Translations under genes and position numbers: made by a program
Part shown: positions 1-51,204 of the stretch, one piece after another
How positions within the stretch are numbered: position 1 is the stretch's first letter
How the letters are laid out: each line of letters starts with the position of its first letter
DNA from: Promethearchaeota archaeon
GTDB taxonomy: Archaea; Asgardarchaeota; Lokiarchaeia; Sigyniarchaeales; SOKP01
Direction: 5' to 3'
Length of the DNA: 64,000 nucleotides
Assembly (NCBI GenBank): GCA_048938895.1
Contig: JBHLLU010000006.1
Span: 54,367 to 118,366 of the forward strand
Notes under the pieces: model-generated
Told to the model about the DNA's origin: nothing
The model's input: only the letters and a program-made list of their open reading frames with translations
Database searches by the model: none

Positions 1-1187
1 AACCATTTCTAGAAGTTGATCTATAGAAGCTTTCAAATCCTTTAGATTATCCCAAATACTAAGTTGCTTAAGTAACTCATCATGTTCATTTGAAATTATA
101 ACTGCTAGTCTATTAAGTTTAAATTTTTCAGCTAAATATTGTGCTTGGGATAATATTTGCCGCGCTTTCTTAAGATCTAAAGTCAATAATGCTAATTTAG
201 CGTTTAAAATATAAGCTTCGACTTGAATCCAGTAAGAATCTTGATCTTATGCCATATCTGATAATCTAGTTATTAAAAGTTGTATCTCCTCCAGAATTTC
301 ACTATCTTTTGTAATTTGTAATTCACTTAGAAGCAATTCACAAAGGTTAATAAGTGCCTTAACAGAAGATTCAAAATGGATAACATGTTCTTCAATGATT
401 TTTCTCAGTATATCTTCAGCTTTTACTCGATTTCTTAATCGAGGGCTTGATTTTAAGACATATGCATAACCTTCCCGATAAAATAGATCAATTAGTTCAT
501 TCTCTTCTTGATTATTAAGCTGCTCTAAGCGCAACAAACAACTTTTAGCTAATTCTATATTACCCATTTCAAGAGCAATATCCAATGTTGTACTAAGCCC
601 AAAAGCTAAGCCTACTACACTCTTATTAGATAAGAATTTATTATAAAATGTTATACAACGCTTTCCATATATTAATGCTTGATCTAAATCGCCTAATATA
701 CGATACCGTTCTGCAAGATTGTTAAGACTTGTTGAAATTAATCGTAAATCGTTAATTTCTTCAGCAATTAATATAGCTTCTTCTTGATATTTTAGTGATT
801 CTCTTTCATCGCCTTTAAAAACAAAAACATTTCCTTTTAATCTTGTTAAACGAAATCTTCGCATTTTTCAATTTTTTCAAGACTTTTGTCTAGTTTTCCT
901 AACATTTGTAGTGAACGAGCTTGTATTAAAAGAGCGTCGAATGAATGAAATTTAATATTTAAACGTTTAGCTTCTTCATATCCTATCTCAGCGAGTTTAA
1001 TCGATTCATTATAATTTCCTAGGCATCCTAAACAATCACTCTTTATTATTTGGAAAGCATTTTGCTCTACCTCTGTTAGATTTCCTCTCTCTTCAACTTT
1101 TTGAATAATTTGAAGAGCCTCGTTAAGATTTCCTTCATTGAAAAAATTACGGGCATCAGTTAACTCTTGAGATTCGGAAAAGAGCAT
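1..1187 (-). pseudogene. TPR-repeat protein, apparently disrupted (frameshift/deletion near 846-864, in-frame TAA at 247-249); runs off the window start
   Basis: ORFs 846..1187 and 247..864 both carry TPR-like helices (SLNNLAERYRILGDLDQAL) and overlap in different frames. Past the TAA at 247-249 the same frame stays open to base 1 (DQDSYWIQVEAYILNAKLALLTLDLKKARQILSQAQ...NEHDELLKQLSIWDNL). Confidence 0.75.
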
Positions 1188-22822: not shown

Positions 22823-24445
22823 TTAGTCAGCAACATCTGAATATCTTTCGCTAAAATACTTTTTAATAAGATATTTAGCCTGTGTAAAATGGCTGACATT
22901 TCCTTGAAAACTTTTTAATTCTTTCGAGAAATTATTTTCGAACTCTCTAGAAAATTCGTCTAGTTTTTTAAACAATACTGGTAATTCCATAGTAGCTATT
23001 AGAGCAACGATATGATATTTCCCATAACCAAATAGTAAAAATACTCCTTCTTTATCAATTTTTCTAAGTTCTTTCTTACTTCGTGTAATTTCAGAAATTA
23101 TAGTTAAAACACCAGAGAGAACACCTGATACAATATCTCTATCAAATTGAACGGGTTCTTCAGTTTTTTTTTTCTTTTCGAAGTTATGTTCGTATAGACA
23201 AATTCCTGTTTTACTAAAAACAAGAAGATCATTTAGAGTTTCTGCCCACTTTTTTTCTTTTGAGACTAGAAATTCCTTCATTCCCATCATCCACACTAAA
23301 AGTATAACCAAAATAAAACTATTAAGTAGATTCGAAAAGTTAGGAACAACATCTTCAATATAAGGGACAGTAATTATCCATTTACCAAATATAAACCCAA
23401 GTATAGTCCCAAAAAAGAATAATAACATGAAAATCCCATTGATACGACCTCTGAACTTCAGATTTCCTCTTTCTGTAGAAAAATCTCCTGCGATTGTAAA
23501 GATTGCAAGTATCAGTGGACATATTGAAAAACCATAATGGATGGAAAGAAAAACTTTTCTTGGCATACCCAAAATATAGGGTTCATTGATAAACGACCCA
23601 TAAGATATAAGAAAAAATGAAACAACTAAAATACCTAAAACAATTGATATTTTTCGGCCTAAATTATCTAAAAAACAGCCAGCAGCAATAAGATATAACG
23701 AGGAAACTATAAAAAATATAAGAAAATCTACTTCAAAACTATACCTAGAAAACAGGTTGCCCAATGTGAAACTTAAGATTGTAAAACTGGAAATATATCT
23801 AAAAAAATGCTTTTCAAAAATAATTTCCAAATATTTTTTGTCAGATTTTAATCTTACATCGGTTTCTATATATTTATAACTTTTAGAATACCAATAAACA
23901 ACAATAAAAATAATAAGTTCTAATAATCCAAATATAAAATACAAGGAATCAAACACTATAAAGAATATAGAAAAAGCCGCTAAGTTAAAACTAGGAATTA
24001 ATAAAAACATTGATATTCTCCCTCGATTTAAAATGTTTGTTTCATGGACTAGTATTGTAAACCAAATAATGATTAATTGGGGGATTGCTAAGAGAATGAT
24101 TAACAATCCGAGATAATATAATAAAACCCCTGGAATTACGCCTACTATAAGTCCAATAACGCAAAGGAATAAGGTTGTATTTAAATATCTTGTTCGATTT
24201 TTAATATGATCTACAATCATACCTGAAATAAAAAAGGAAATTGCAATAATAAATACAAAAACATAAGTTTCTAATCCCATAGTATTTAGATCTCGAATTA
24301 GCATTAAATATTCAAATACTAAAGCTTCAACAATTAACATAATAGCTAATAGTGAGAAAAATAAATAACTAAAAGTTTTGAGTTCAATATTGATATCTCT
24401 AGTAAATACCCTAATAAACCACTGTTTTACAGAATTCTTTTTCAT
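22823..24445 (-). CDS. Multi-pass (MFS-like, about 12 TM) membrane protein with C-terminal longin-like domain
   Basis: MFS motif-A-like GCFLDNLGRK and GMIVDHIKNR; soluble tail LLVFSKTGICLYEHNF...DIVSGVLSGVLTIISEI...FSREFENNF. Confidence 0.8.
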   Translation of the reverse strand: MKKNSVKQWFIRVFTRDINIELKTFSYLFFSLLAIMLIVEALVFEYLMLIRDLNTMGLETYVFVFIIAISFFISGMIVDHIKNRTRYLNTTLFLCVIGLIVGVIPGVLLYYLGLLIILLAIPQLIIIWFTILVHETNILNRGRISMFLLIPSFNLAAFSIFFIVFDSLYFIFGLLELIIFIVVYWYSKSYKYIETDVRLKSDKKYLEIIFEKHFFRYISSFTILSFTLGNLFSRYSFEVDFLIFFIVSSLYLIAAGCFLDNLGRKISIVLGILVVSFFLISYGSFINEPYILGMPRKVFLSIHYGFSICPLILAIFTIAGDFSTERGNLKFRGRINGIFMLLFFFGTILGFIFGKWIITVPYIEDVVPNFSNLLNSFILVILLVWMMGMKEFLVSKEKKWAETLNDLLVFSKTGICLYEHNFEKKKKTEEPVQFDRDIVSGVLSGVLTIISEITRSKKELRKIDKEGVFLLFGYGKYHIVALIATMELPVLFKKLDEFSREFENNFSKELKSFQGNVSHFTQAKYLIKKYFSERYSDVAD

Positions 24446-31672: not shown

Positions 31673-32578
31673 TTGAAATCTACAATAAAATCAAGAATAT
31701 TTGTTATCACCCTCTTTAGCACATGTTTTGCTTTATTCACTATTGAAAATTTGGAGATAGATAAAAGTAATGATTTTAAGAATGAATCTTTTAAAATTTC
31801 CGCTATTTCTGGAAAAATTCACATTAATAACAATTGGACAGAAACTAAAGCTGCAGGAATATGTACGGGGGAAGGAATTGAATCTGATCCATACGTTATC
31901 GAGGATCTAATAATAGATGCAGGTGGTTCGGGTAGCAATATTTTAATTGTAAACTCTATAGAATATTTTAGAATTGAAAATTGTACTTTATCAAATTGCG
32001 GGAGTGATTTCTATGATGCAGGCATTGAATTAATATCAGTTGATAATGCTGAGTTGGTGGGAAACCAGTTTTCAAATCCTGATGGTTTTGGAATAATTTT
32101 AAACGGAAGTAATAGTAATATCATTAGAGAGAATTTCATAACTGCTAAAAGGGGTATTTCAGTCCGTTTTTCTAACGATAACCGGATATATCTAAATAAT
32201 CTTCAAAATCCTATTTTTAATGCTGAACAACACAATTCTACTGGGAATAAATGGAGCACTCCTAAAAAAATGAAATACATCTATAACAGTAGAACTTTTA
32301 CAAAACACCTAGGAAATTATTGGAGTGGTATTGGCTTAACTGATAATAATAATGATGGAATTGGCGATACTCCTGTGATTTTTGATCAGCATCTACCTTC
32401 CTCAGAATGGCAATACATTGATTATCATCCACTAATAGCTTCTCTGCCAAATTATGATATTTTAGGAGAGTCTTCTAAAACTACAATTTTAGGTTATGAT
32501 CTGATTTTAGTTATTGGAGTAATTAGTATAATTACATATGCAATTCTAAATGGATTAAGAAATCGACTAAAGCTATAA
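31673..32578 (+). CDS. Secreted right-handed beta-helix (NosD/CASH-like) protein with Loki-CTERM-like anchor
   Basis: N-terminal hydrophobic signal, IHINNNW...DPYVIEDLII, GNYW...DGIGDTP, tail ILGYDLILVIGVISII...RNRLKL. Confidence 0.82.
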   Translation: MKSTIKSRIFVITLFSTCFALFTIENLEIDKSNDFKNESFKISAISGKIHINNNWTETKAAGICTGEGIESDPYVIEDLIIDAGGSGSNILIVNSIEYFRIENCTLSNCGSDFYDAGIELISVDNAELVGNQFSNPDGFGIILNGSNSNIIRENFITAKRGISVRFSNDNRIYLNNLQNPIFNAEQHNSTGNKWSTPKKMKYIYNSRTFTKHLGNYWSGIGLTDNNNDGIGDTPVIFDQHLPSSEWQYIDYHPLIASLPNYDILGESSKTTILGYDLILVIGVISIITYAILNGLRNRLKL

Positions 32579-33268: not shown

Positions 33269-36200
33269 CTAATATTTTTTTTCTGAATCTGCTATCAATT
33301 TATCTAATTCTTCTTTCTGTTCTAAAGATTTCTTAATCAACTGATCTTGCTCAAATTCTTTCTCTACTGATGTTGTTGATTTAACTTTTGAGATCTCCTC
33401 TTCCCTAGGTTCAGCAGATTTTTGTTTATAATAAGAGGAAGTACTAGCTGTACTTCTTCGAAACGATCCCTTAAATGCTAGTTCTCGATTTAAGATAGGG
33501 ATGTTTGGCGATCTTTTCCTTCTTAACGACTTTCTATATTTCCTTACCTTTCTTACTGGTTTTGGATATTTAAGAATTCTTCGATAATAGAATATATAGG
33601 TACCCAAAATTACAATTCCAATCAAACTGAGGATAAGTAATATTTGAAATAAAAGAGTTTGTTCAAAGGGAATGATAACTGTATAAGAAATCCATAAAAC
33701 TACATTATCAATCGAAACTTCAATAACATCACTTAATCCAAACTCATCAGCAAGAAAAATAACTATGGTAACGTTAATTTTTTCATTGATAGGAACGATT
33801 TTTGTGAGATCAAATCCATCAGCTTTTATAGGTTTAAAAGAAGGACCAAGATTGCTTAGTTTGATTGTTTCATTGTGTACTTGATCATTGATCATAAACT
33901 TAAACTCAGAGTTAGGTGATAAGCTTGTAGGCCAGCTTGTGTTTACCATACAATCTAAAGAAAGTAAAGCTTCTGAAATTTTAATTTTATTACTTCCCTC
34001 ACTAAGCTCATCTCCCTTATATTTCCAAGAGATCGAAGTAAATTGATCAATAATTTTCTCATAGGATATTGTTAAAGTTAAATTTTTAATCCATAACCCA
34101 TTCCAAAAATCTCTATCCATTGCATATACACTATCTTCGCACCAAATGGACATACCCAAAGTGAGAGCAAATTCTCGACTATTCTTCTCAAATGCTTGAT
34201 TTAGATAGAAAATGAGAGATTCTTCAGTAAGAGGGGTGATTTCAGTATCATTTAATTCTGTTATTGAAGGTGGTCCATCTTTACCCAGTTCAGTAGTTTG
34301 ATAATGAACAGCCTCGAATTCTCTTTCATGGTTTAAATCAGAAACTATAACAAAGTAGCGAGCAAAATCTCCTGTAGCCATTCGAAGAATACCACTACTG
34401 ACATCTGTGTCTCCAGGTCTATCGATACCTCCTAAATCGGCATCTTGATCTTCTACAGTTCCATTTATCCATACCTCGAGAGAAGCAGATGTTACTTGAT
34501 AGTCAGACATATCAACATCCATCGTAAAATTTTTTTGCCATTGAGCCTTAACCGATTGATTTAACACATTATCTATGTAACGATGTCTTACATACCATCC
34601 ATCGCTTCTCATTTCGTCTATTTCAGGAACAGGTACTCCATCTGTATTTTCAATCCTACTCCACTCTCCACTCAAAGGATTATTTTCAATCCATTGTTGA
34701 ATCCCACTATGGCCTAATATTTTAAAATTTGCTGCACTGTTATCTATAGAGGCATTAACATCAGTTGCATCACCATTATACTCATAATCCCATCCATCTA
34801 TGCTACTAAAATCTGAGTTTTCAATCCATTGCGCATTCTTTGATTCCCTTGTCCAGAATGCTGGTGTTCCTTGAGATAACGTAGGGTTATTCAGATTAGT
34901 TGAATTTTGTATTGAAATGGATTCTACAGGAAAATTTGAAAATAGCATGGGTATTAAAAATCCAAAAATTACGAAAATTAGAAGTAACATAGTTTTTGTT
35001 GATATGTTTGGCTTTCCACTACTTTTTGGAATGCCTTTGGTAGATTTGCTATTAGCTGCTAATGTTTTTGATGGTTTACCACTTAAATAACTTGAAGTGT
35101 TTCCTACTTCCTTTTTAAATTGCCTCTTAAACGCTGTCTCTCGATTTTTAATTGATATCATTGGCGGATTTGATTTATTCAAGGATCTTCTATATTTTCT
35201 AACTTTTCTCACAATTCGTGGATATTTTAAAACTCGTTGATAATATATGAAATAAACAGCTAATCCCCCCGCGATAATTAAACTGACTATAAGTAAGATT
35301 AGGAATAGATTGCTTTCACTAGTAAGAGTATAATAATCATAAGAGACAGCAAGAATTACATTGTCAATTACAATATCATATGCTTCACCTAATCCAAACT
35401 CATCTGCAAGAGAAACTTGAATTGACAAGTTGATTACTTCATCTATTGGGATTAATTTTGTAACATCTAAACCCCCTTCTTTAACCTTTTTAAAATTTAT
35501 ATCAAGATTGCTTAATTTAAAAGTTTCAGAATATTCCTGATTATTAATAAATATTTTAAATTCAGAGTTAGGAGATAGATTTGAAGGCCAAGATTGATTA
35601 ATTTTGTAATCGAAGTTTAAGATTGCTTCATTCAATTCAACAATACCCTCACCACTTTCAATATCATCTCCTTGATATTTCCATGATGCTGATGTAAGTT
35701 GATCAATTTTTTTTATATAGGAGATATTGAAATCGCAGGTTTTAATGAAAATATCTTCAAATATATCCATATCGGAACCGATGTTATCCTCACAATTAAT
35801 CTCAACCCCCACGCTTATAGTAAAGTTTTGATAATCATATTTTAGGACTTGATTCAGATAAAAAATTAAATCTTCCATTTTCTCAGGTTCAAAAATAGTA
35901 TCTGTAATATTATCATATGAATTTTGACCTATATCCGTCCCGAGACCTTCGGGTTTGAATTCTGCAACTCTATAATTTACATTTTTTTGTACATCTGATA
36001 AAACGACATAAAATTTAAGGTAATCTCCTTCTCCAAAATAAGTGGAATAATAGTCTCCAGGGACTTCAATTCCCCCCCAAGGATAAGGAGGTGTATATGG
36101 ATCTTTACCATCTCCTGGATATGCTCTTACTGTAGCGTTAACCTTAATTTTCAGAGATGCAGATGTTATAATATAATCAGATATATTCTGGAGTAGAGTA

Positions 36201-36721
36201 ACATTTTTATCCCATTGTATAGATACTTTTTGAAATGGATTCAAGGGTGTACCTGAAGATTCATTCCATATATGTGCTGTCCAACATCCTTCTTTAGTAA
36301 TATTATGAAGTGGTTGAGATGCAATCCTCCTAGGGTAAACAGGAATTAGTGGATTGGTTGAATTTATCCATCCAGGAGATGATATTGAATTATTTATAGT
36401 TCCAGAGACGATTTCATAATTAGTAACTTGTTGTCCCTGAATAATATAATGACCTTCCTCATTTTGAATAAATGATGTAATATCACTAATATCACCTTGG
36501 TATTCTTGTATCCAATTATCACTTGTAGAAAAATTTGGGTTTTCAACTAATTGAAAGTTGAAAGTCTGTTTTTTCCATTTATCAGCTGAGATGTTGGGAT
36601 ATGGTTCATTTTCGTCAAAGATCACATGTTTTGATGGGTTTTGGGTAGAAAGTAGTAATAAAATAATCGTGAAAATGATAATTGAAAGAATCTTTATAGT
36701 TTTATTATTTTTTGACTTCAA
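33269..36721 (-). CDS. Membrane-anchored surface protein, tandem A-B fusion of two ~400-aa extracellular modules (4 TM)
   Basis: TM-moduleA-TM-KYPRIVRKVRKYR-linker-TM-moduleB-TM-KYPKPVRKVRKYR; many N-x-S/T sequons. Confidence 0.85.
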   Translation of the reverse strand: MKSKNNKTIKILSIIIFTIILLLLSTQNPSKHVIFDENEPYPNISADKWKKQTFNFQLVENPNFSTSDNWIQEYQGDISDITSFIQNEEGHYIIQGQQVTNYEIVSGTINNSISSPGWINSTNPLIPVYPRRIASQPLHNITKEGCWTAHIWNESSGTPLNPFQKVSIQWDKNVTLLQNISDYIITSASLKIKVNATVRAYPGDGKDPYTPPYPWGGIEVPGDYYSTYFGEGDYLKFYVVLSDVQKNVNYRVAEFKPEGLGTDIGQNSYDNITDTIFEPEKMEDLIFYLNQVLKYDYQNFTISVGVEINCEDNIGSDMDIFEDIFIKTCDFNISYIKKIDQLTSASWKYQGDDIESGEGIVELNEAILNFDYKINQSWPSNLSPNSEFKIFINNQEYSETFKLSNLDINFKKVKEGGLDVTKLIPIDEVINLSIQVSLADEFGLGEAYDIVIDNVILAVSYDYYTLTSESNLFLILLIVSLIIAGGLAVYFIYYQRVLKYPRIVRKVRKYRRSLNKSNPPMISIKNRETAFKRQFKKEVGNTSSYLSGKPSKTLAANSKSTKGIPKSSGKPNISTKTMLLLIFVIFGFLIPMLFSNFPVESISIQNSTNLNNPTLSQGTPAFWTRESKNAQWIENSDFSSIDGWDYEYNGDATDVNASIDNSAANFKILGHSGIQQWIENNPLSGEWSRIENTDGVPVPEIDEMRSDGWYVRHRYIDNVLNQSVKAQWQKNFTMDVDMSDYQVTSASLEVWINGTVEDQDADLGGIDRPGDTDVSSGILRMATGDFARYFVIVSDLNHEREFEAVHYQTTELGKDGPPSITELNDTEITPLTEESLIFYLNQAFEKNSREFALTLGMSIWCEDSVYAMDRDFWNGLWIKNLTLTISYEKIIDQFTSISWKYKGDELSEGSNKIKISEALLSLDCMVNTSWPTSLSPNSEFKFMINDQVHNETIKLSNLGPSFKPIKADGFDLTKIVPINEKINVTIVIFLADEFGLSDVIEVSIDNVVLWISYTVIIPFEQTLLFQILLILSLIGIVILGTYIFYYRRILKYPKPVRKVRKYRKSLRRKRSPNIPILNRELAFKGSFRRSTASTSSYYKQKSAEPREEEISKVKSTTSVEKEFEQDQLIKKSLEQKEELDKLIADSEKKY

Positions 36722-36912
36722 AGTTAATCAAATCATCTAATTTAGATAATATTTTATGATATTCGATATTCTTAATTAAATAAGTTACTTAAGTCGTTAT
36801 TATTTATAATATCTAAGGTGTTTACCACTAATAAAGAATATATCCCAAGTACTCTTAGATCTCATTAACAAATAAAATTCTGATAAAAAATAAAACAAAA
36901 ATAAATTTCTGA

Positions 36913-39654
36913 TTACTTTTTATCTAAATCATCAACCAATTTATCAAGCTCGGATTTCTTTTCTATACTTTTATCTATTAATGCTTCAGACTCTAATTTT
37001 TCAGAAGATTGTGTAGATTTTGCTTTATCGGTTGATAATTCTTTTTTAGGGGATAAAATAGGTTTGCTACTCCGTTTTAGTCTGAAGTCACTGGATGATT
37101 TGCCCAAATTCTCGTTATATACCACTTTAAAGGCAGCACTACTTCCTAAAATAATAATATTAGGTGTAGATTTTCTTTTAAGTGTTTTTCTATATTTTCG
37201 AACCTTTCTTACTTGTTTAGGGTATTTTAAATAAGTTTGATAAGCATAGATATATATTATTAAGCCAGCAATCAATATGGTTATAAGAGTAAATAAGATT
37301 GGAAATAAGGTATTTTCTCCTGTCTTCTCACTGATAGCTGCGATGATAATTTCATAATCTTCAATTAAATATTTATCACCATAAAATGCTGAAATTACTA
37401 TAGGATAAGTACCCTTAGGAACATCTGTTATGTTAGCTTCATATATTCCATCATTATCGAGATCCGCAAGGATTCCCGAACCCCCTTCCCAAGTATATGT
37501 TACAACTGCTCCGGTAATAAATCCCCCAAAATCCGTATTATTTAATCTTATTTGTAACTTCACATCAGATCCAGGCTTGGTTTCAATCGTGCTTGATCCT
37601 GAAACGGGTACAATTGCAATAACAATTTTCCTAATGGAGACTGTAATTTCTACAACTTTTGTCTGGAGTGATTCCGTTTGGGCTGTAACAGTCAATAAAT
37701 TTGTGCCTATTTTTAAATTCTGATTCGTATCAATAACAATTGAATATTGTTCAAAATAAGCACTTTCATTAATATAGGAGCTAAATGTCTCCGAGGTCAA
37801 AAGAATATCTGCTCCCGGAATATGAGTTCCATTAGGTAGATTATATTTGAGAGTAATATTTAGCGTTTCGCTAAAAATTAAATTTATATATGGATCGGGA
37901 GTAACATCTTGATTATTTAATATTACCTGCAAATCTTGAGTTGGAAATTTATTGATCCTCACAATTATATATATTATCCTAGTTTCATAATCTTCTGCTT
38001 GAGCGATAATAGTTAAAAAATTAACACCAGCGTCTGATATATCTGTATTAATTGTAATACTATACTGTTCTAAAATTGCACTTTCTTCTAAATCTCCTGT
38101 AAAATTACCTGTTAACTCTACTGTAGCATTAGGTATATGGGTACCAGTTTTATTAAGATATTTTACTGTGATATTCAAAGAATCACCAATATAAATATCA
38201 ATGTCAGGATCTTCAGTTTTATTGGCAGAATTTAAGAATAAATGGAGATCTGTCTGTTTATCAGGAAATATAATTGTATAAGAAATGTTGAGAACAACAT
38301 CATCAATAGATATGGTAATATTTCTATCCAGATTGAATTCATCCGCAAGAAAAACTTCAATCGAGAGATTTACATCATTTATAATCAATGAAGTAATATC
38401 AAATCCTCCAATTTTAGCCTCCTGAAATGAAGTTGTACCTGTGCTTAATTTAACTGTTTCTGGATGTTTATTATTGTTGATTAAGATTCTTAATTCAGAA
38501 TTTTGGGCAGAGGTTGGCCAATTTTGATCAATTTTATATTTAAAATTAAGTAATGCTTCATTTACTATTACAGTATAATTACTTAAGTCGCTAATACTAT
38601 CGGCATCCTGATTCCATGATACGGATGTAAATTGATCGATCTTTTTCACATAAGAAAAAGTTAAATTGAATGATCTTATAATTAGGGAATTCCATCTATC
38701 GACGTCAACTCCAATTTCATTATCTTCACAATAAATATCTATACCAAGGGTTATAGTAAAATTAATTCCGTTAGAGCTTAATACTGAAGTTAAAGCATCA
38801 ATCAATACACTTTCTGGTATTGTGTCCATTTGGGAATCTGGAAAACTGCCAATTGCAGGTGAATCCTGCCCTAGGTTTCCTGCTCCTGTATTGTTAGTAG
38901 CTATTGGAATTGGTAATAAAGTCTCTTCAGCATCATTTAACGATACATAAAAATCTGCAGAATCACCCGAAGAATATACATCAAGACCTACATCACCTTC
39001 ACGATCTATACCACCCGCAGTTCCAGCATGAGGTGAGACACTAACCGAAGCATTAAAAATAACATCTAGCGATGCGGAGGTGATCACATAATCTGACATG
39101 TTTACAGGCATGTTTATTGTTCTTTTCCAATGTACACTTGGTCGATTTCTTGTTTGATTATTATCTTCATGCCATAAATGAGAAACATAGCAGCCTGAAG
39201 AATTAATTACGTAAGTATCTGGTAAAATGGGTAGATCTGGATTCTTGTGGGGACTCCAATCCACACTACTGAGTGAATTGTCAATTTCCATTTCACCTGA
39301 ATCTCCAAGAATCGTATAATTAGCTTGTCCTATATCAGGTAATGCTATGACATCTGAAGGATCTCCTAAATCTCCATATTTGGGATACCACGTTGGTTGA
39401 ATCGGAGAATCAAATGAAGTATTATTTAACCATTGTTTTGTAAAGGATGATTGAGCAGCTATTTCAATATTCTCATTTACCAAGGTCTCCTTTGGTGATA
39501 TCGTAAATGTACTTTGTTTGAAAAAAGGTAATATTAACAAAGAACTGAAAATGATGATCATCAGAATAACTATTAAGTAGAATAATTTACCTTGTTTTTT
39601 GAATATTAAATTACATTGCCGCATTTTTCTTAATTTAAGCCCCAATTTATTCAT
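36913..39654 (-). CDS. Membrane-anchored surface protein, B-type module plus about three Ig-like repeats
   Basis: N-terminal TM, module with GGIDREGD and CEDN, repeats (LNITVKY...HIPNATVEL), TM, KYPKQVRKVRKYRK. Confidence 0.85.
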   Translation of the reverse strand: MNKLGLKLRKMRQCNLIFKKQGKLFYLIVILMIIIFSSLLILPFFKQSTFTISPKETLVNENIEIAAQSSFTKQWLNNTSFDSPIQPTWYPKYGDLGDPSDVIALPDIGQANYTILGDSGEMEIDNSLSSVDWSPHKNPDLPILPDTYVINSSGCYVSHLWHEDNNQTRNRPSVHWKRTINMPVNMSDYVITSASLDVIFNASVSVSPHAGTAGGIDREGDVGLDVYSSGDSADFYVSLNDAEETLLPIPIATNNTGAGNLGQDSPAIGSFPDSQMDTIPESVLIDALTSVLSSNGINFTITLGIDIYCEDNEIGVDVDRWNSLIIRSFNLTFSYVKKIDQFTSVSWNQDADSISDLSNYTVIVNEALLNFKYKIDQNWPTSAQNSELRILINNNKHPETVKLSTGTTSFQEAKIGGFDITSLIINDVNLSIEVFLADEFNLDRNITISIDDVVLNISYTIIFPDKQTDLHLFLNSANKTEDPDIDIYIGDSLNITVKYLNKTGTHIPNATVELTGNFTGDLEESAILEQYSITINTDISDAGVNFLTIIAQAEDYETRIIYIIVRINKFPTQDLQVILNNQDVTPDPYINLIFSETLNITLKYNLPNGTHIPGADILLTSETFSSYINESAYFEQYSIVIDTNQNLKIGTNLLTVTAQTESLQTKVVEITVSIRKIVIAIVPVSGSSTIETKPGSDVKLQIRLNNTDFGGFITGAVVTYTWEGGSGILADLDNDGIYEANITDVPKGTYPIVISAFYGDKYLIEDYEIIIAAISEKTGENTLFPILFTLITILIAGLIIYIYAYQTYLKYPKQVRKVRKYRKTLKRKSTPNIIILGSSAAFKVVYNENLGKSSSDFRLKRSSKPILSPKKELSTDKAKSTQSSEKLESEALIDKSIEKKSELDKLVDDLDKK

Positions 39655-39674
39655 TTTTTTTCTGATTTTAATTA

Positions 39675-42251
39675 TTATGATTTTTGGATAGTTTTTTCTG
39701 TAGGTTTACCTCTTAAAAATTTTGATGTTTTACTTAATTCTTCATGAAACACTGTTTCAAATGCTTTATTACGATCAACAATACTGATTCTAGGCAACCC
39801 TGTTCTTCTCAACCTTTTGCGATATTTTCGAACTTTACGAACTGTTCTTGGGTATTTTAAAACTTTTTGATAAGCATAAAGATAAGCACCTAATGCAATA
39901 GATACGATAATGCCTACTATCAATAAGATCTGAAAAATAATGGAAGAATCTTTTAGCTTACTCGCAACTATGATGAATTCAAGACTTATAAAATTGTACT
40001 TATCACCACCAAAAGCATCAATTATAATGGGATGAGTTCCAACTGGTACATTTGATATAGTTGCTTCATATATACCATCATTATCAGGATCCTCAAAGAT
40101 TCCATTCCCCTTTTCCCAAGAGTAGGTGACAATTGCCCCTTTAACTATTTCATTTAAATCTGTATTATTTATAAATACTCTGATAATAGCGTCTTCTCTA
40201 GCATGAATACCAATGGTATCAGTATTGTTGACACCAGTTATAACAGAATTAATTTTTCTAACTGTTATTCTAGGATTTATAGTTTGATATTCAAAATTTA
40301 ATTTACTCGCTTCAATTTTTAAGAGATTATTACCAAAACTTAGTTTTATTGAACTATTAATGAGAATAGAATATTGATGGAATTTAACACTTTCATTTAA
40401 TGTTTCTATTATTCCCATTCCTGACAAAGTAACTGTTGCTCCCATTACAGGTGTGCCTATAAGAGTGTTATATTTGACAGTTATATTAAGTAGAGCATCA
40501 AGAGGAATATCTTTTAAAGGATCTAAGGTTCTATTTTCCCCATTTAAGAAAAGATGTAAATTTTGTGTTTCAGTAGGTACAACCGTTAAAATTGGATTTA
40601 TTGTACTTAATTCATAATTTATCTTATGGGCAACAACTTTAAATTGAAATGTGCCCACGTTTAAATCATTTGAATCTATTATAATTGTATATTGTCCATG
40701 GGTTATATCTTCTATTAAAGTTCCTGTGATATTCCCTGATAATTGAACAACCGCTCCTGAGATATGAGTACCAGTATCATCAGGATATTTAACTGTAATA
40801 TTCAAATCATTTCCTACAGGATGACTATAAACTGGATTTAATGTCTTATTGATACCATTAAAAAATATTTGTAGGTTAGTCTGAAAATCAGGAAAGATTA
40901 CTGTATAAGTAATGTTAAGGTATACATCATCAATAGAAACAGTCGTATTACGATTCAAGCTAAATTTATCCGCAAGATAAACTTGAATTGAAAAATTAAT
41001 ATCTGTATTATAAGGTATAAAAGATGTAACATCAAATCCCCCAATTTTAGCTTCTTGAAATGATGTTGTGGCATCAGTTAACTTAATCGTTTCAGGTATT
41101 TTATTTGTATTTATATAAGCCCTAATTTCAGAATTTGGAGATTTACTAGTCCAATTATTATCGATTTTATACTTGAAATTAAGTTTAGCTTCATTTAATA
41201 TGACTGTATCATTACTTACATCATTTATCTGCCCAGCATCTTGATTCCAAGAAATTGAACTGAATTGTTTAATCTTTTTCTCGTAACTGAAAGTTAAATT
41301 AAAAGATCGAATAATTAAACTTCTCCACCTATCAATATCTACGTTATATTCATTATCTTCACAATAGATATCAATTCCCAAAGTTATTGTAAAGTTATAA
41401 CCATCATTACTTAAAACAGAGGTCAAATATGATTTAAGAATCTCCTCCGAAACTGGATTTAATGGCGTATCTGGATATGAATCTATTACAGGACTGTCTT
41501 GGCCTAAATTTGTAGTTTTATTGGTGGCAATAGGATAAGTGAAACTATTATCTAAGTCTGAAAGTTGAGCATAAAATGTTGCTGAATCACCAATACCAAA
41601 TTGTGGCACTGTTGGTGGGTTACCTTCTGTATAATCTCCTTTAACTTCAATACCACCTCCATCATGATCAAGAGCTTGAACTGAGGCATTAAAAATTACC
41701 TCAACCGAGGCAGATGTTATAATATATTCTGACATATTAACAGGCATAGTAATATTTTGTTTCCATTGCATACTCGGAGTATTTCTTGATTGATCGACTC
41801 CTTCATCCCATGTGTGAGAAACATAACAACCAGCGGAATTAATGCCATAATTATCTGGTGCGATCGGATATTTTGGATTATTGAAAGAAATCCAATCTAC
41901 ATCATTGAGGGGGTTATCTATTCTTTTTATTCCTGAATCTCCAATAATCTTTAGATTCACTTGACCTAAACCTGCTGAAGCTTCCACGTCTCCTAAATCT
42001 CCTTCTAATTCTGGATACCATATAGGTTCAATTGGATCTTCAAACGTGGGATTCTTAAGCCATACTGCAGTAAGTGTTTCTTCAGCAGTCATTTTAGGCT
42101 TTTTATACTCAGTAACTTCGAATACATTATCAATATTCGATTGGAATTCTTTATTTGGAAATAAAGGAATAATGAGAATTGATAACAAAATAATAATAAA
42201 TAAAGTAGAAGATGTGAAAATTCTCTTTTTTCTACAGTTTTTCAGATTCAT
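39675..42251 (-). CDS. Membrane-anchored surface protein, A-type module plus about three Ig-like repeats
   Basis: N-terminal TM, module with GGIEVKGDY and CEDN, repeats (LNITVKY...GAVVQLSG), TM, KYPRTVRKVRKYRK. Confidence 0.85.
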   Translation of the reverse strand: MNLKNCRKKRIFTSSTLFIIILLSILIIPLFPNKEFQSNIDNVFEVTEYKKPKMTAEETLTAVWLKNPTFEDPIEPIWYPELEGDLGDVEASAGLGQVNLKIIGDSGIKRIDNPLNDVDWISFNNPKYPIAPDNYGINSAGCYVSHTWDEGVDQSRNTPSMQWKQNITMPVNMSEYIITSASVEVIFNASVQALDHDGGGIEVKGDYTEGNPPTVPQFGIGDSATFYAQLSDLDNSFTYPIATNKTTNLGQDSPVIDSYPDTPLNPVSEEILKSYLTSVLSNDGYNFTITLGIDIYCEDNEYNVDIDRWRSLIIRSFNLTFSYEKKIKQFSSISWNQDAGQINDVSNDTVILNEAKLNFKYKIDNNWTSKSPNSEIRAYINTNKIPETIKLTDATTSFQEAKIGGFDVTSFIPYNTDINFSIQVYLADKFSLNRNTTVSIDDVYLNITYTVIFPDFQTNLQIFFNGINKTLNPVYSHPVGNDLNITVKYPDDTGTHISGAVVQLSGNITGTLIEDITHGQYTIIIDSNDLNVGTFQFKVVAHKINYELSTINPILTVVPTETQNLHLFLNGENRTLDPLKDIPLDALLNITVKYNTLIGTPVMGATVTLSGMGIIETLNESVKFHQYSILINSSIKLSFGNNLLKIEASKLNFEYQTINPRITVRKINSVITGVNNTDTIGIHAREDAIIRVFINNTDLNEIVKGAIVTYSWEKGNGIFEDPDNDGIYEATISNVPVGTHPIIIDAFGGDKYNFISLEFIIVASKLKDSSIIFQILLIVGIIVSIALGAYLYAYQKVLKYPRTVRKVRKYRKRLRRTGLPRISIVDRNKAFETVFHEELSKTSKFLRGKPTEKTIQKS

Positions 42252-42561: not shown

Positions 42562-43815
42562 TTGATTCAAGGTATTTTAACATTTCAGTTCAAAATCAAT
42601 CAGAAAGAGTCAGGTGAAATTGAACCAGAATTCGAGCCAATCCAATCGATTTTTCGTGATGATCAATTTGAAGAAGAAAATATTTCGGAATTACTTACTG
42701 ATAATGACTTATTTGCTATATTTTATCAACACACCACGGGATTATTTGGCGTAAAGTATAGTTATAGCAATTTCTACACAGGGAGATTAAAGGAGACACC
42801 ATATCAGGTAATATCTTATTTTAAACAAGTTGCAGATGGTACTCAATATTTAGCTGTTTCAATTTTTGAACTTGATGATGAGATAGAAATTTTTGAAGAT
42901 TTAATAAAAGAAATGGGAAATCGGTTAGATACAATATTTGATAAATTAACTAGGGCTAAAAGTTCGAAACAGGTTTCATTAATCGAGAACATTAATATTA
43001 GATTAAAGAATGAAATTAAATTTGCTATATTTCAAGTTGATAGATTATCGAATTTGGATAAACTTCAAAAAGTAGCTTTGATCTATAATAGTGAAGAAAG
43101 GCTTAAAATCTTAGAAATATTACGGGAACGTCCGACTGCTAAGAAAGAGTTGAAAAACATAATTGAAAAAATGTCTACTACAGTTAATATTGATATTCTC
43201 CTCCAACCTTTTCTGGAATTGAATATAATTAGGCGTGATTGGATAAAAGGGGAGAAGGATAAGAAAACTGGAGAAATTAAACATCAAGGAGAATATTTAT
43301 TCTTAGTCAAGGATATTCTTATAGCGAGGATTCCCAATGAGACTTTATTAAACCATTTCAAGGAAACAAAAAATGAACTACTTCCATTTTATAAACAAAA
43401 AGTAATCGATTATTTCTCCACATATGATCCTTACAACCAATCAAGAGAAGAAACAAAAAAAATAGCATCCATTCTATTATCTCCTGATGCCTATGATTTT
43501 TACGTTTTAATGAGACATAATCATTACCCACTCGACAAAATCCCAAAAATATTCTCAGAATTTGCTGTGACTGAAATATTATTAGATGATTTGAAAAAAT
43601 TAAATGTTATTGCAGAGATTACTGATGATAATGAACGTAATTGGATATGTCTACTAACAGAAATAAAACCCTTGATTATTTTCCCCGAATATTTGTTGCC
43701 TAAGATCAGGGAGGCATATAGGAATGAAGATGGTGATGGTGAAATCACTTATGAAATTGCTAAGAAGGCTCTTAGTTTGCTAGAAATTACATATCCCGAG
43801 AAAGTGGAATTTTAG
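42562..43815 (+). CDS. Hypothetical protein, putative longin-like domain plus two winged-helix repeats
   Basis: Internal repeat ERLKILEILRE...LQPFLELNII...EYLFLVKDI versus DAYDFYVLMRH...LDDLKKLNVI...NWICLLTEI; N-terminal beta-alpha-beta pattern. Confidence 0.65.
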   Translation: MIQGILTFQFKINQKESGEIEPEFEPIQSIFRDDQFEEENISELLTDNDLFAIFYQHTTGLFGVKYSYSNFYTGRLKETPYQVISYFKQVADGTQYLAVSIFELDDEIEIFEDLIKEMGNRLDTIFDKLTRAKSSKQVSLIENINIRLKNEIKFAIFQVDRLSNLDKLQKVALIYNSEERLKILEILRERPTAKKELKNIIEKMSTTVNIDILLQPFLELNIIRRDWIKGEKDKKTGEIKHQGEYLFLVKDILIARIPNETLLNHFKETKNELLPFYKQKVIDYFSTYDPYNQSREETKKIASILLSPDAYDFYVLMRHNHYPLDKIPKIFSEFAVTEILLDDLKKLNVIAEITDDNERNWICLLTEIKPLIIFPEYLLPKIREAYRNEDGDGEITYEIAKKALSLLEITYPEKVEF

Positions 43816-43845: not shown

Positions 43846-46050
43846 ATGTATTTATTCAAAGATAAGGATGTAATTGAAGTTCCAATTACATGCAAATATT
43901 GTTTAAAAGAGATTAAATTTCCAATAGCAAAAAGCGAATATAAAGACGTAACAAAGTTTCCAATTAAAAGAGAAAGTGTTCATGGTGTTCCTGAACATAA
44001 ACTAACAGTTTTTATAAATATGAGTTTGGAGATTGAGAATTTTGAAATTCAAGAATTAGGTGAAAAGGAAGAAGAGGTTGCTTATTCAGAAGAATTAATT
44101 AAACAAGTTCTCAGTGATATAGAATTATCAGATGAAGAAATAGAATTGTATTTTAGAACAACAGGACGAGAGACAGTGTCTCTAGGGGAAATCTCGATTT
44201 TAATTGGAAAATCTAAAGATGAGTGTAAAAAAATAGTTGACAAATTCATTGAAAAAGGATTGTTTAAAGAAATTATTGGTGCTACACCTCATTATGCTGC
44301 TTTACCTCCATATGCTGCACTAGTAGCCCAATTAAACAAGTTCTATACTTATATTTCTGAGATCAAATCAAAAATTCCTACTCAATTAGAGAGCTCATTT
44401 GCTCAGTTAGAATCTCAAGCTAAGGGTATGGAGGCTTTAAAGGATTCTAGTGAGGCAATGGTTGAATTAAAAGAAAAGATGCTCAATCAAATTCAAGCTC
44501 AAAAAAAAGAATTCGATGAAACAATTTCTGCAATTGATCAGATTAAAAACATTACAAAAGATATTTCTGGTTTAGGGGAGGTTACAAAAAGTATTTCAGA
44601 TGATCAAATAGGAAGTTTAACATCTCAATTTGATAATCTTAATTTAAAGACTTCACAAGTTATAAGAAACCAAGTTGAGGAATTAAGAAATCAGTTAGGG
44701 GATGTCAAACAAATTGTAAGTGATAATCTACAAAAATTAAAGCTGGGCGTAATTCAACAAGCAGTGGGTGATGTAATAGAAAAAGTTATAGCTTCGCGAT
44801 TAAAGGATATTACTGATAATCTGAATGTACAACTTAGTGTAAGCCAAACAGTGTTTGCAGACGAATTAAAGAAATTAACACAAGGAGTTGATTCCGAATT
44901 TGTTTCAAAATTAAGAAGTCAAATCGAAGATGCTGTTAAAAATATTGAAGGAATTTCTATTAAATCTGATGATGATAAAGAAAGAGCTTTTTCGGAAATA
45001 ATTGAGAACTTTAATAAAGCTGCAAAGTTAGCAGAAAAGAAGATTGACGGTCTTTCAGGAGACATTTTTCAATCATTTGGAAACATACGAGAAATTTTCT
45101 CTAAAGGAATTGTAGATACATTAAATAATACTTTAGATGATATTTTGAACAGATTGGAACTCAGTGAAAAGACTACGAAAGAATTCTGGGAGCAATCAAA
45201 AAAAGCGAAGGGTGCAATAACAATGAAAGACATTTGGTTCATACGTTCACCAGAAGCAGCTAAAGCTCATATAAATGACGAGATTTCCAAAGCCAAAATG
45301 AGAGTCTTAATTGTTGCACCAGATCTCTTAGATATCGACATTGACTCTATTAAAGCAAGACCCTCAAGGATAAATTTTAGAATTGCTACTCATATAGACC
45401 CACATATAAAAGCACATGAAGTAGTAATGCAACAGCTAGATCAAATGGATAATGTAGATTACAGAAATCGTGTATTACAGAATCTATGGGGAATTAATCG
45501 TGATTATGAAGAGGTAATTTTGTGTGTGCTTTCCAAAACGGAATTTCGCGGAGAAGAGGTAACTGAAATTGCTGGTATCGGGAGTATAATAGAAGAACAT
45601 ATTAAAATTTTTGTACCTATACTCGAAGATGCCTGGGTTGGTGCACGAAAAGAAATTATGAGGGATATTAAATCATCTCTTTCCCGAGAACCTGAGCAAA
45701 TAACTCCACCACCACGCAGACCTGAAGACGCTCTTACAATTCCACCAACTCCAGAATATAAAGCACCTGTACCTTCAGAAGCACCTACTGATATAAAAGC
45801 ACCTTCTTTCTTAGTGACTCTGTTTGATAGTATCATGAATAAATTAGATAATAAAACCGGTATTGAGATTTCCACATCTTTAGAAAAATTTCAGAGTGAA
45901 TTTGTCAAAAGAAAAGGTTATAACAGTGTTTTAAAAAATATTCATACTGAGTGCAACGACTTAAAAGCTAACACTACTTTACTCAATCAACAACAAAAAG
46001 AAGATCTTAAGCTAAAGATGAAACTCTGGCGTCAACAACTCGATCTATAA
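43846..46050 (+). CDS. TrmB-like regulator with N-terminal CxxC domain, long coiled-coil insert and extra C-terminal helical domain
   Basis: CKYC...H...H; LSDEEIELY...LGEISILIG...KFIEKGLFKEIIGATPHYAALPP (TrmB wHTH); IWFIRSPEAAKAHINDEISKAKMRVLIVAP (TrmB effector-domain start). Confidence 0.75.
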   Translation: MYLFKDKDVIEVPITCKYCLKEIKFPIAKSEYKDVTKFPIKRESVHGVPEHKLTVFINMSLEIENFEIQELGEKEEEVAYSEELIKQVLSDIELSDEEIELYFRTTGRETVSLGEISILIGKSKDECKKIVDKFIEKGLFKEIIGATPHYAALPPYAALVAQLNKFYTYISEIKSKIPTQLESSFAQLESQAKGMEALKDSSEAMVELKEKMLNQIQAQKKEFDETISAIDQIKNITKDISGLGEVTKSISDDQIGSLTSQFDNLNLKTSQVIRNQVEELRNQLGDVKQIVSDNLQKLKLGVIQQAVGDVIEKVIASRLKDITDNLNVQLSVSQTVFADELKKLTQGVDSEFVSKLRSQIEDAVKNIEGISIKSDDDKERAFSEIIENFNKAAKLAEKKIDGLSGDIFQSFGNIREIFSKGIVDTLNNTLDDILNRLELSEKTTKEFWEQSKKAKGAITMKDIWFIRSPEAAKAHINDEISKAKMRVLIVAPDLLDIDIDSIKARPSRINFRIATHIDPHIKAHEVVMQQLDQMDNVDYRNRVLQNLWGINRDYEEVILCVLSKTEFRGEEVTEIAGIGSIIEEHIKIFVPILEDAWVGARKEIMRDIKSSLSREPEQITPPPRRPEDALTIPPTPEYKAPVPSEAPTDIKAPSFLVTLFDSIMNKLDNKTGIEISTSLEKFQSEFVKRKGYNSVLKNIHTECNDLKANTTLLNQQQKEDLKLKMKLWRQQLDL

Positions 46051-50166: not shown

Positions 50167-51204
50167 TTATAAGATATTTTTAATCATCCATCGAAGAGAT
50201 TTCATTACTCTATCGTCTTCTTCTAGAATTTTTATAGGGAAATATCGAATTCTCCTTCCCATGCCTTTCAAGTTCTGAATTTCAAAGAGATTATAAATAT
50301 AGTCTTTTTTATCTTCTTCTTCAATATCAAATTTATTGCCTATAATTAATATAGGAACAGGATCGACATTCATTTCATGATATTTTTCCTCAATAACCTG
50401 CAACATATTTTTAGCATCAATTATAGACTTATTTTCTGATAATTTAAATATGAGAATTATTCCCTGGGTATGAGTAATGCATTCATCAAAAGATTTAAAA
50501 GCTTTGCAACCGAATTCGCATTTTTCTTCGTCGAAATTTAGAATCTCAAGGTTCTCTATAATTACTTCTAAAATCCTTGTAGCTAAATCATTATCTTTAA
50601 TATTTAGGAATTGTATAAATTCAATATTTTTCAGTAAAGTTTTCTTACCTGATTGTAGGCTTCCTACGATAAAAACTTTCTTTATTAATTTTTTATCTTT
50701 TATAGGTGTCTCAACACGATATCGAGGAGTTAATTTATTGAAATACTTATTAAAAATAATTAAGAAAGCATCTTTGAGTTTATCATCAGCATAAAGAAGT
50801 ACGTTCCCTTTTGAATCTGCATGTTTGCTCTCATGCAATAAAGATGTAATATTACTCAACTTTTTTATTTCTTCTGCAAACTCCTCTAATATTGGCCCTT
50901 TTGAATCTAAATATTTAAAGACATCTACGATTTCATCTTTAAAGAATGCAGTTCTAATCATAAAGGTAATCATCATTAATTCTTTACCGCCACGAGCGAA
51001 TTTAGAATCCAGATAAAATAAATGATTTACTGTTTGATATTTTCGGTAAGCAAAGATAAAAGTACCCTCCTCATCATTAAATTCAAGAATTTTATCTAAA
51101 TCTGGAGCTCCTATAACTTCATCTAAAGGTTCACTTGAATAAAATAAATTTGGGCCTATTACATGGTCAAAATAGGAAACGGATAGAATTTGATCTTGAG
51201 ACAT
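50167..51204 (-). CDS. uDENN/longin-like domain fused to a degenerate small GTPase
   Basis: SVSYFDHVIGPNLFY N-terminus, ARGGKELMMIT; G1 GSLQSGKKT, QGIILIF, G4 GNKFD; no canonical DxxG. Confidence 0.75.
   Translation of the reverse strand: MSQDQILSVSYFDHVIGPNLFYSSEPLDEVIGAPDLDKILEFNDEEGTFIFAYRKYQTVNHLFYLDSKFARGGKELMMITFMIRTAFFKDEIVDVFKYLDSKGPILEEFAEEIKKLSNITSLLHESKHADSKGNVLLYADDKLKDAFLIIFNKYFNKLTPRYRVETPIKDKKLIKKVFIVGSLQSGKKTLLKNIEFIQFLNIKDNDLATRILEVIIENLEILNFDEEKCEFGCKAFKSFDECITHTQGIILIFKLSENKSIIDAKNMLQVIEEKYHEMNVDPVPILIIGNKFDIEEEDKKDYIYNLFEIQNLKGMGRRIRYFPIKILEEDDRVMKSLRWMIKNIL

Follow-up and report, generated by a model that had tools for sequence, protein, structure and literature searches.

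The window analysed here is a stretch of 64,000 nucleotides with a G+C content of ~30% from a Promethearchaeota archaeon (GenBank assembly GCA_048938895.1, contig JBHLLU010000006.1). Three open reading frames (ORFs) on its minus strand, A, B and F, lie in the same orientation and hold four copies of one ~420-aa ectodomain, hereafter the head, two of which (F1 and F2) are in F. Judged from the sequences, the chances are about even that these genes specify an obligate two-chain (alpha/beta) receptor or adhesin of the cell surface, specific to this lineage and present in two sets, one tall and split between A and B, the other short and fused in F. That the two chains form one functional unit is argued from the strict order of their tails, their tight coupling or fusion, the even number of heads in gene clusters and, most of all, the fact that an E-type and a D-type copy of a head domain (the second jelly roll, JR2) have both been kept through at least three exchanges between the chains.

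A first-pass annotation of the window, made from its letters alone, had described three co-oriented genes with four module copies, and eight shared motifs were indeed found once per module at matching positions. The order that it gave, A, then B 20 nt further on, then the fusion, was also confirmed. The stop of A is TAATAA and the ATG of B lies in a different frame. In a head-to-head BLASTP comparison the heads of A and B were 59% identical (E 1e-165) and all other pairs of heads 36-38% identical (E 4e-70 to 5e-85), a repeat similarity far above chance. Overall, therefore, the A and B heads are closer to each other than either is to a half of F, as the annotation had itself suspected. The A/B junction is crossed without gaps at 39350-39877 (X3), and the F1-F2 linker at 34863-36181 (X2), by contigs from other samples, of the same study as the possible source of the window, so the split and the fusion are not peculiar to the assembly of the window.

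Two chain types in a fixed gene order

Using a hidden Markov model (HMM) of the head, 87 head units were cut from 40 loci fetched from 30 relatives, from the window and from two further contigs of its genome, and their tails were read. The loci had been chosen for showing clusters and not for their gene order. Tails of subfamily I share the core LKYP[KR]xVRKVRKYR and are of two types. The alpha tail ends around ..TSSFLxGKP and the beta tail has a terminal acidic helix such as SEELIxKSLEKKEELDxLV. In the window, the annotation had correctly distinguished the short tails of A and F1, ending ..GKP, from the long tails of B and F2 with their terminal ..ELDKL.. helix. All 19 evaluable subfamily-I pairs of the fetched loci, 10 fused and 9 split, have the unit without the helix first and the helix unit second. 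Three units truncated by contig ends (L059 twice, L073) were unevaluable. Departures from the scheme are found in L061, which has an additional beta gene, in L057, where the tail of a 580-aa gene halts just before the helix, and in L058, where a subfamily-II gene follows an alpha-like one.

The two chains are also closely coupled as genes. When the pair is split, the beta ATG lies -1 to 34 nt past the alpha stop in seven of nine cases. The tall pair, split in the window, is one ~1820-aa ORF in 4 relatives; there an in-frame basic linker of 60-70 aa occupies the junction, which in the window is shortened and interrupted by stops. Short pairs are split in at least 7 genomes and fused in others. 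Components that are separate in some genomes thus form one ORF in others, the Rosetta-stone pattern, and 36 of the 120 public homologues among the matches listed have two heads. The conservation of A-B adjacency or fusion that the first-pass annotation had proposed to check was found, the split and fused two-chain pattern being kept in two genera. An alpha/beta pair stands beside a fused pair at one locus in 6 genomes of these two genera, in 5 of them in the order [alpha][beta][fused] of the window and in the sixth (G017) with the fused pair first. At loci of the window type the height of the pairs, tall or short, varies between genomes, and the fused pair is absent from some. The fetched flanks of these loci have the same neighbours in 9/9 cases upstream and 7/7 downstream, though this says little about function because the wider region is syntenic too.

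Head numbers were counted in an evenly drawn sample of the phylum, in which 87 full-length head matches were used of 99 rows, the 12 partial rows being dropped. Clusters on one strand hold 60 of these 87 heads and the other 27 are single. There are 21 clusters, eleven with two heads, two with three and eight with four, so that 19 of the 21 have two or four heads.

Subfamily II, with the tail FKYPPxVRKIRKLKKK, has tandem pairs with two head types and, in addition, single tall genes. Loci L063 and L064 (genomes G030 and G034, from another family of the same order) contain short members in sets of three genes, whose tail motif, FK[YF]PAQVR..R.L.RR.IR.GR, is divergent. As two genes are adjacent or overlapping in these sets, pairing may predate the family to which the genome of the window belongs.

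Exchange of a head domain between the chains

The first-pass annotation had sorted the modules into types A and B by markers at opposite ends of the chain. Within the window the head marker behaves as it described, GGIE..GDY occurring in A and F1 only and GGIDR.GD in B and F2 only. Among homologues the tail half of this proposal stood, tail type and gene order agreeing in the 19 of 19 pairs given above, whereas the head half did not, the marker lying in JR2, a part of the head that has been swapped. The 36 subfamily-I alpha and beta units divide into 8 alpha units with E and 4 with D at the marker, 9 beta units with D and 6 with E, and 9 that the pattern did not match. Head and tail markers therefore do not co-segregate, and in the nearest relative (L043) the arrangement of E and D is the opposite of that in the window. 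Nor do the heads fall into A and B groups, as a tree of 84 heads contained neither an alpha clade nor a beta clade.

The reason for this was visible in a sliding-window comparison with the nearest relative. Over alignment columns ~100-320, which correspond to JR2, A agrees with the relative's second unit, identity in 40-aa stretches reaching 100%, and B with its first (up to 94%). Outside these columns the assignment is reversed, A agreeing with the first unit at up to 90% and B with the second. The JR2 of A is 86% identical to that of the second (beta) unit of L043. The same cross-chain pattern was seen in two more quartets, the short pairs of G017 and G019 and the tall pairs of G018 and G024. 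These alignments indicate that the two chains have traded their JR2 cassettes on at least three occasions. Chimeric assembly was considered as a source of the swaps and is unlikely, since exact DNA identity between partner heads extends over 11-38 nt only and each arrangement is common to a group of genomes.

A tree of JR2 alone from the 19 closest units gave an E clade of 10 and a D clade of 9 (support 98/95.7 in the careful tree). All nine complete pairs have one E and one D JR2, with alpha carrying E in 5 and D in 4. In approximately unbiased (AU) tests, the alpha/beta grouping was rejected on the JR2 columns (delta lnL, the difference in log-likelihood, 402; p 2e-5) and the E/D grouping was rejected on the remaining head columns (delta lnL 491, p 4e-5). 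The E and D forms differ mainly by loop insertions and deletions near GGI[ED]..GD. Between orthologues JR2 is 84-86% identical compared to 74-78% for the rest of the head.

Paired or independent chains

The main rival explanation is that the genes are independent tandem paralogues of an adhesin or lectin repertoire whose products act alone or as homo-oligomers. Duplication, neutral loss of stop codons and recombination between neighbours would then have produced the locus without any alpha-beta contact. Several of our observations fit this explanation and weigh against an obligate pair. Single-gene members are common, the 27 single heads of 87 including C132 and C114, two single paralogues in the genome of the window, and the module therefore does not generally need a different partner. 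Fusion is weak evidence where the genes are tandem paralogues; each unit is predicted to begin and end in the cytoplasm, so the loss of a stop codon would be topologically harmless, and several fusion and fission events have occurred. Partner heads are often mutual closest relatives outside JR2, alpha and beta heads being sisters in both the tall and the F lineage, and strict alpha/beta monophyly on the remaining head columns was also rejected, though far less strongly than the E/D grouping (delta lnL 53, p 6e-4). The two chain types thus do not go back to ancient lineages of the head. In subfamily II, the two heads of the pair L048 are nearly sisters. The E/D and alpha/beta groups, moreover, received their names only once the trees had been seen.

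Independence leaves unexplained the order of the tails in 19/19 pairs, helix-less and then helix, and the even number of heads in 19/21 clusters. Moreover, if the genes were independent, drift to E/E or D/D pairs or the loss of a member would be expected, and it would be hard to explain why 9/9 pairs still have both an E and a D JR2 despite at least three changes of chain. We therefore regard independent paralogues as unlikely, though deserving to be kept in view beside the obligate pair.

Fold of the head

AlphaFold2 gave an all-beta model of the B head (44 sequences; mean predicted local distance difference test, pLDDT, 86.3; predicted TM-score, pTM, 0.80) and a jelly roll for JR2 alone (B residues 116-340, 72 sequences; pLDDT 94.3, pTM 0.91). 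Each model has just two short helices, and in both a two-sheet beta sandwich extends over most of a domain, as in a jelly roll. Exhaustive structural comparison of the B head gave numerous jelly-roll matches with Z 9-11.1, among them reelin (Z 11.1), carbohydrate-binding modules (CBMs; CBM27, CBM36 and CBM15, Z 10.9-10.6), BcsB (10.7), the MAM domain of RPTPmu (10.3) and the ligand-binding domain of EphA3 (9.8), and JR2 matched the RPTPmu MAM domain (Z 9.4, root mean square deviation 3.2 over 141 residues), a gingipain adhesin domain (8.8), CBM61 (8.8) and peanut lectin (8.6), all of these Z values being modestly above the stated background of the tool, 7-8. In the JR2 matches (Z 8-9.4) 130-158 of the 225 residues were aligned. 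Such matches place the models in the jelly-roll lectin/CBM/MAM fold class and do not identify a homologous family.

The matches of the head each align only 115-159 residues yet stretch over model residues ~25..412, and one of them, domain III of Cry11Aa, covers 71..286. This suggests an outer jelly roll (JR1) built from the N- and C-terminal strands into which JR2 is inserted, so JR2 is apparently nested in JR1. With both ends of the head chain in JR1, JR2 should be the membrane-distal domain. The invariant acidic motifs of the head are CEDN, D.D.W and GGI[DE]..GD. A structural Ca2+ site is common in jelly-roll CBM and lectin modules, and these acidic residues would be compatible with a site of this kind. 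In the ESM Atlas, the best score for the B head was 0.84, the matches were viral or unnamed clusters and a MAM lead appeared at rank 27, an uninformative result. Double jelly-roll capsid proteins were also among the Foldseek matches (probability 0.12-0.47, TM-score 0.1-0.16) and were set aside as showing generic jelly-roll likeness only.

Foldseek placed BcsB and CBMs on top with low TM-scores. BcsB, the periplasmic subunit of bacterial cellulose synthase, alternates carbohydrate-binding and flavodoxin-like domains, is anchored by a C-terminal helix and is the partner of the BcsA synthase. Its jelly-roll carbohydrate-binding domains and C-terminal membrane anchor resemble the present chains, and BcsB chains led the Foldseek lists (E 2.4e-6 for the head; TMq 0.34-0.39 for JR2). 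The products could on this basis belong, as accessory subunits, to a machine that makes or exports exopolysaccharide, and guide the glycan outside the membrane. The TM-score over the whole head is just 0.2, however, and the models are all-beta apart from the short helices and lack flavodoxin-like domains. Furthermore, there was no Pfam match to BcsB, and neither a synthase gene nor any other glycosyltransferase or exporter was found in the conserved neighbourhood. This explanation is barely credible.

Topology and stalk

All units follow one plan, with a hydrophobic N-terminus, the head, an optional repeat stalk of ~310 aa, a transmembrane (TM) helix and a basic tail with KYPxxVRKVRKYR. Hydropathy gave hydrophobic segments at residues 9-36 and 766-794 of A, 21-48 and 781-806 of B, and 6-29, 465-495, 572-599 and 1015-1046 of F. 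From its four segments F would have the layout TM-head-TM-tail-TM-head-TM-tail. N-glycosylation sequons occur at 2.4-3.4 per 100 aa in the ectodomains compared to 1.0 in the ORFs of the window. Acidic residues (D+E) are well above basic residues (K+R) in the ectodomains, and the reverse is true of the tails. Heads outside and tails inside would fit these properties. In the tall forms just ~25-35 residues connect the N-terminal hydrophobic segment to JR1, which tops the ~310-aa stalk, so this segment is probably cleaved.

The stalk has an internal repeat of ~100 aa, seen as an off-diagonal high-scoring segment pair at an offset of ~100 aa, and sub-threshold Pfam matches to Big_3_5 and Ig_NUP210. 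The stalk repeats of A are probably Ig-like. A sequence search of the stalk against PDB chains found no relative (best E 0.84). The tail is a basic peptide of ~60-110 aa, of which ~45 residues of the cytoplasmic part are conserved, and in the genome of the window the tail motif is confined to the four modules and the single paralogue C132. The helix of the beta tail was compared by eye with the ESCRT-III-type MIM1 motif and rejected as such because the spacing departs from the consensus.

Distribution of the family

The first-pass annotation did not recognise the module as a named family, and the searches bear this out. Against Pfam and NCBIfam, A, B and F gave nothing above the curated cut-offs (best E 0.066-0.5), and no match to an S-layer, Big/Ig, MAM, BcsB or integrin family exceeded them. 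The 39 fused homologues gave only scattered Pfam matches, in 1-3 members each and at E 4e-4 or weaker. A profile of the head found no relative among PDB sequences, the single match having E 0.16. The head module is an unnamed family. The searched literature contains no description of it, although supplementary tables, which lay outside that search, may list such genes.

A word-indexed search recovered at least 869 relatives among 8000 candidates scored, and an exhaustive HMMER scan of 1.84 billion cluster representatives gave 313 clusters at E <= 1e-3. The 120 homologues among the matches listed are all hypothetical proteins from metagenome-assembled genomes labelled Promethearchaeota, Thor-, Hermod-, Hod- or Lokiarchaeota, and 1 of them has a precomputed Pfam domain. 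The module was present in 24/24 and 25/25 searched genomes of the family to which the window belongs (two samples with a few genomes shared, 49 in all). In other families of the same order it was present in 10/11, 1/1 and 2/4 genomes, and in 25 other families of the phylum it was found in 0/123 genomes. Among the genomes searched, the family is found only in the order of the window. No relative was found on viral contigs.

Six modules occur in the genome of the window. The single paralogue C114 (G000:C114:22314-24479; locus L004:697-2862, minus strand) is a 722-aa protein with a head and a TM helix in which a cytoplasmic module of ~230 aa replaces the basic tail. This module also terminates two large surface proteins of the genome, C37 (1395 aa) and C78 (1234 aa). 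Separate, free-standing proteins found only in Asgard archaea are similar to it (ESM Atlas 0.93 and 0.91). The module gave nothing above the Pfam and NCBIfam cut-offs. Open frames like C114, 717-745 aa long, are present in 8 genomes of the genus. The pattern of C114, C37 and C78 suggests exchangeable cytoplasmic output modules.

The products could alternatively be structural, forming a lawn of membrane-anchored glycoproteins in place of an S-layer, in which case the two chains would make up a mixed, non-crystalline coat and not a ligand-specific receptor. The S-layer of Sulfolobus offers a comparison, in that SlaA and SlaB are glycosylated surface proteins encoded by two adjacent genes, with one or both membrane-anchored. 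SlaA and SlaB are mutually unrelated and build a lattice, whereas the present chains are paralogous and both anchored. The acidic, sequon-rich ectodomains and the presence of the family in all 49 genomes searched from its own family would suit a coat. According to the available portions of two studies that used cryo-tomography (PMC9834061; bioRxiv 10.1101/2025.11.06.686947), cultured Asgard archaea related to this one have an amorphous coat of 'complex surface proteins', to which no molecular identity is given there, and no S-layer; the absence of a lattice is taken from the first of these. This genome has only 6 modules and none was found in the 123 genomes searched outside the order, which excludes the family as the coat of Asgard archaea in general. 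An intracellular partner, for which a passive coat would have no use, is further indicated by the beta-specific helix and by the ~45 conserved residues of the cytoplasmic tail. A structural coat is accordingly very unlikely.

Proposed function and comparison with known systems

If A with B and the two halves of F are obligate alpha/beta pairs, the chains would be made 1:1 from one transcript or one polypeptide and would be placed in the membrane so that the head faces outward and the tail the cytoplasm. They would then associate side by side, displaying two different distal JR2 domains together, and these may bind a glycan or protein ligand on partner cells, on a substrate or in the cell's own coat. 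The two different tails would recruit a cytoplasmic partner, and the stalk would set the height of the display. Were the N-terminal segment cleaved, the fused proteins might be cut into two chains after the third TM segment and would be polyproteins.

A bolder form of this proposal is an order-specific Asgard adhesion receptor with integrin-like logic, having paired lectin-like heads with interchangeable distal domains. Its tails and the beta-only helix would couple it to the Lokiactin cytoskeleton or to membrane-remodelling machinery, and it would be the basis of adhesion to substrates and to partner cells in crawling, protrusion-forming Asgard cells. The fused genes would then encode polyproteins cut by signal peptidase, giving an exact 1:1 ratio. 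We consider this form distinctly improbable.

Integrin alpha/beta receptors are similar in organisation only, with two bitopic chains, large heads on stalks, short tails with conserved membrane-proximal motifs and, on one chain, an additional tail element for binding a partner. Neither Pfam nor the structural matches revealed the beta-propeller, betaI/VWA, PSI or EGF domains of integrins. Here both heads are the same double jelly roll, the chains are paralogous and their pairing is a predicted one. MAM-Ig(-FN3) receptors such as RPTPmu (PDB 2v5y, 2c9a) likewise have a distal jelly roll on a beta-sandwich repeat stalk, followed by one TM helix and a cytoplasmic portion, and the MAM domain of RPTPmu is the top structural match of JR2 and is among those of the head. 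Identity to these receptors is only 9-14% with no Pfam MAM match, and they differ from the present system, which has nested jelly rolls, a basic tail without an enzyme domain and two chains encoded as a set. Jelly-roll CBMs and lectins (CBM27, CBM36, CBM15, CBM61, legume lectin) are of the same fold class (Z 8.6-10.9 over 115-160 aligned residues) but are not related in sequence. The present proteins have no catalytic partner domain, are membrane-anchored at one or both ends and have only a putative sugar-binding function. The likeness to CBMs and lectins, MAM-Ig receptors, BcsB and integrins is thus one of fold class or organisation only, as no defining sequence feature of any of them was found. 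Membrane-anchored lectin-like surface receptors are known as such; the unnamed, apparently nested double jelly roll, the paired-chain genetic system and the conserved tail motif, in one Asgard order, are new.

The 'complex surface proteins' of cultured Asgard archaea are thought to mediate cell-cell contact and adhesion of relevance to syntrophy, to crawling motility and to models of eukaryogenesis. For one order the family provides concrete candidates for these proteins, with a predicted ectodomain fold, a candidate chain pair and a cytoplasmic motif usable as bait for a partner. Repeated reciprocal exchange of a head domain with both types kept is an unusual evolutionary signature of functional coupling, and the same signature could reveal other two-chain receptors.

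Features of the locus and neighbouring genes

The features of the three genes are collected in Table 1. Contigs of three other samples (X2-X4) have a 12-nt insertion in the B-F intergenic spacer at window position 36903. Contigs from other sediments link equivalent points of different heads (F1 to B, B to A; joints 35575/38518, 38675/41324 and others) with a few unrelated letters between. The flanks are short, 21-37 nt, and these contigs may be related strains or recombinant paralogues.

Table 1. Positions in the window of the genes A, B and F and of their parts. Boundaries of the JR2 cassette of A are approximate, being mapped from B via motif offsets.
Feature	Position	Strand	Description
Gene A	39675..42251	-	858 aa; tall alpha chain: N-terminal hydrophobic segment, double jelly-roll head (predicted), E-type JR2, ~310-aa stalk, TM helix, short basic tail ending ..FLRGKP..
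JR2 cassette of A	41268..41945	-	~residues 103-328; E type, GGIEVKGDY
Stalk of A	39957..40886	-	residues 456-765; ~three beta-rich repeats of ~100 aa
TM helix (766-794) and alpha tail of A	39678..39956	-	contains LKYPRTVRKVRKYRKRL
A/B spacer	39655..39674	-	20 nt, from TAATAA stops of A to ATG of B
Gene B	36913..39654	-	913 aa; tall beta chain, plan as A but D-type JR2 and long tail with terminal acidic helix
Head of B	38245..39510	-	residues 49-470; AlphaFold2 model
JR2 cassette of B	38635..39309	-	residues 116-340; D type, GGIDREGDV
Stalk of B	37315..38244	-	residues 471-780; 40% identity to stalk of A
TM helix (781-806) and beta tail of B	36916..37314	-	LKYPKQVRKVRKYRKTL ... LIDKSIEKKSELDKLVDD
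Gene F	33269..36721	-	1150 aa, TTG start; alpha'-beta' fusion without stalk, four hydrophobic segments
Head 1 of F	35330..36634	-	residues 30-464; GGIEVPGDY
TM2 (465-495), alpha-type tail and cytoplasmic linker (496-571), TM3 (572-599, beta' signal or anchor) of F	34925..35329	-	
Head 2 of F	33680..34924	-	residues 600-1014; GGIDRPGDT
TM4 (1015-1046) and beta-type tail of F	33272..33679	-	terminal helix LIKKSLEQKEELDKLIAD

Upstream of the cluster and divergent from it are two genes at 42562..43815 and 43846..46050 (both plus strand), encoding proteins of 417 aa and of 734 aa, the latter with a long coiled-coil-like middle. Counterparts with 57-85% identity occupy the same position in 9/9 fetched upstream flanks from two genera. 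These conserved neighbours gave nothing above the Pfam and NCBIfam cut-offs. Just downstream of the cluster, 31673..32578 (plus strand) encodes a NosD/right-handed beta-helix protein (Pfam E 5e-17) that is hydrophobic at both ends and is likely to be another surface protein. Further away, the product of 50167..51204 (minus strand) has an N-terminal extension of ~170 aa of no assigned family, which is followed by a small GTPase domain of the Arf/Ras kind (Pfam Arf E 1.8e-7, residues 175-344). A multi-pass membrane protein with a weak, sub-cut-off MFS match is encoded at 22823..24445 (minus strand), and its C-terminal soluble part has a faint Sybindin-like match (E 0.016).

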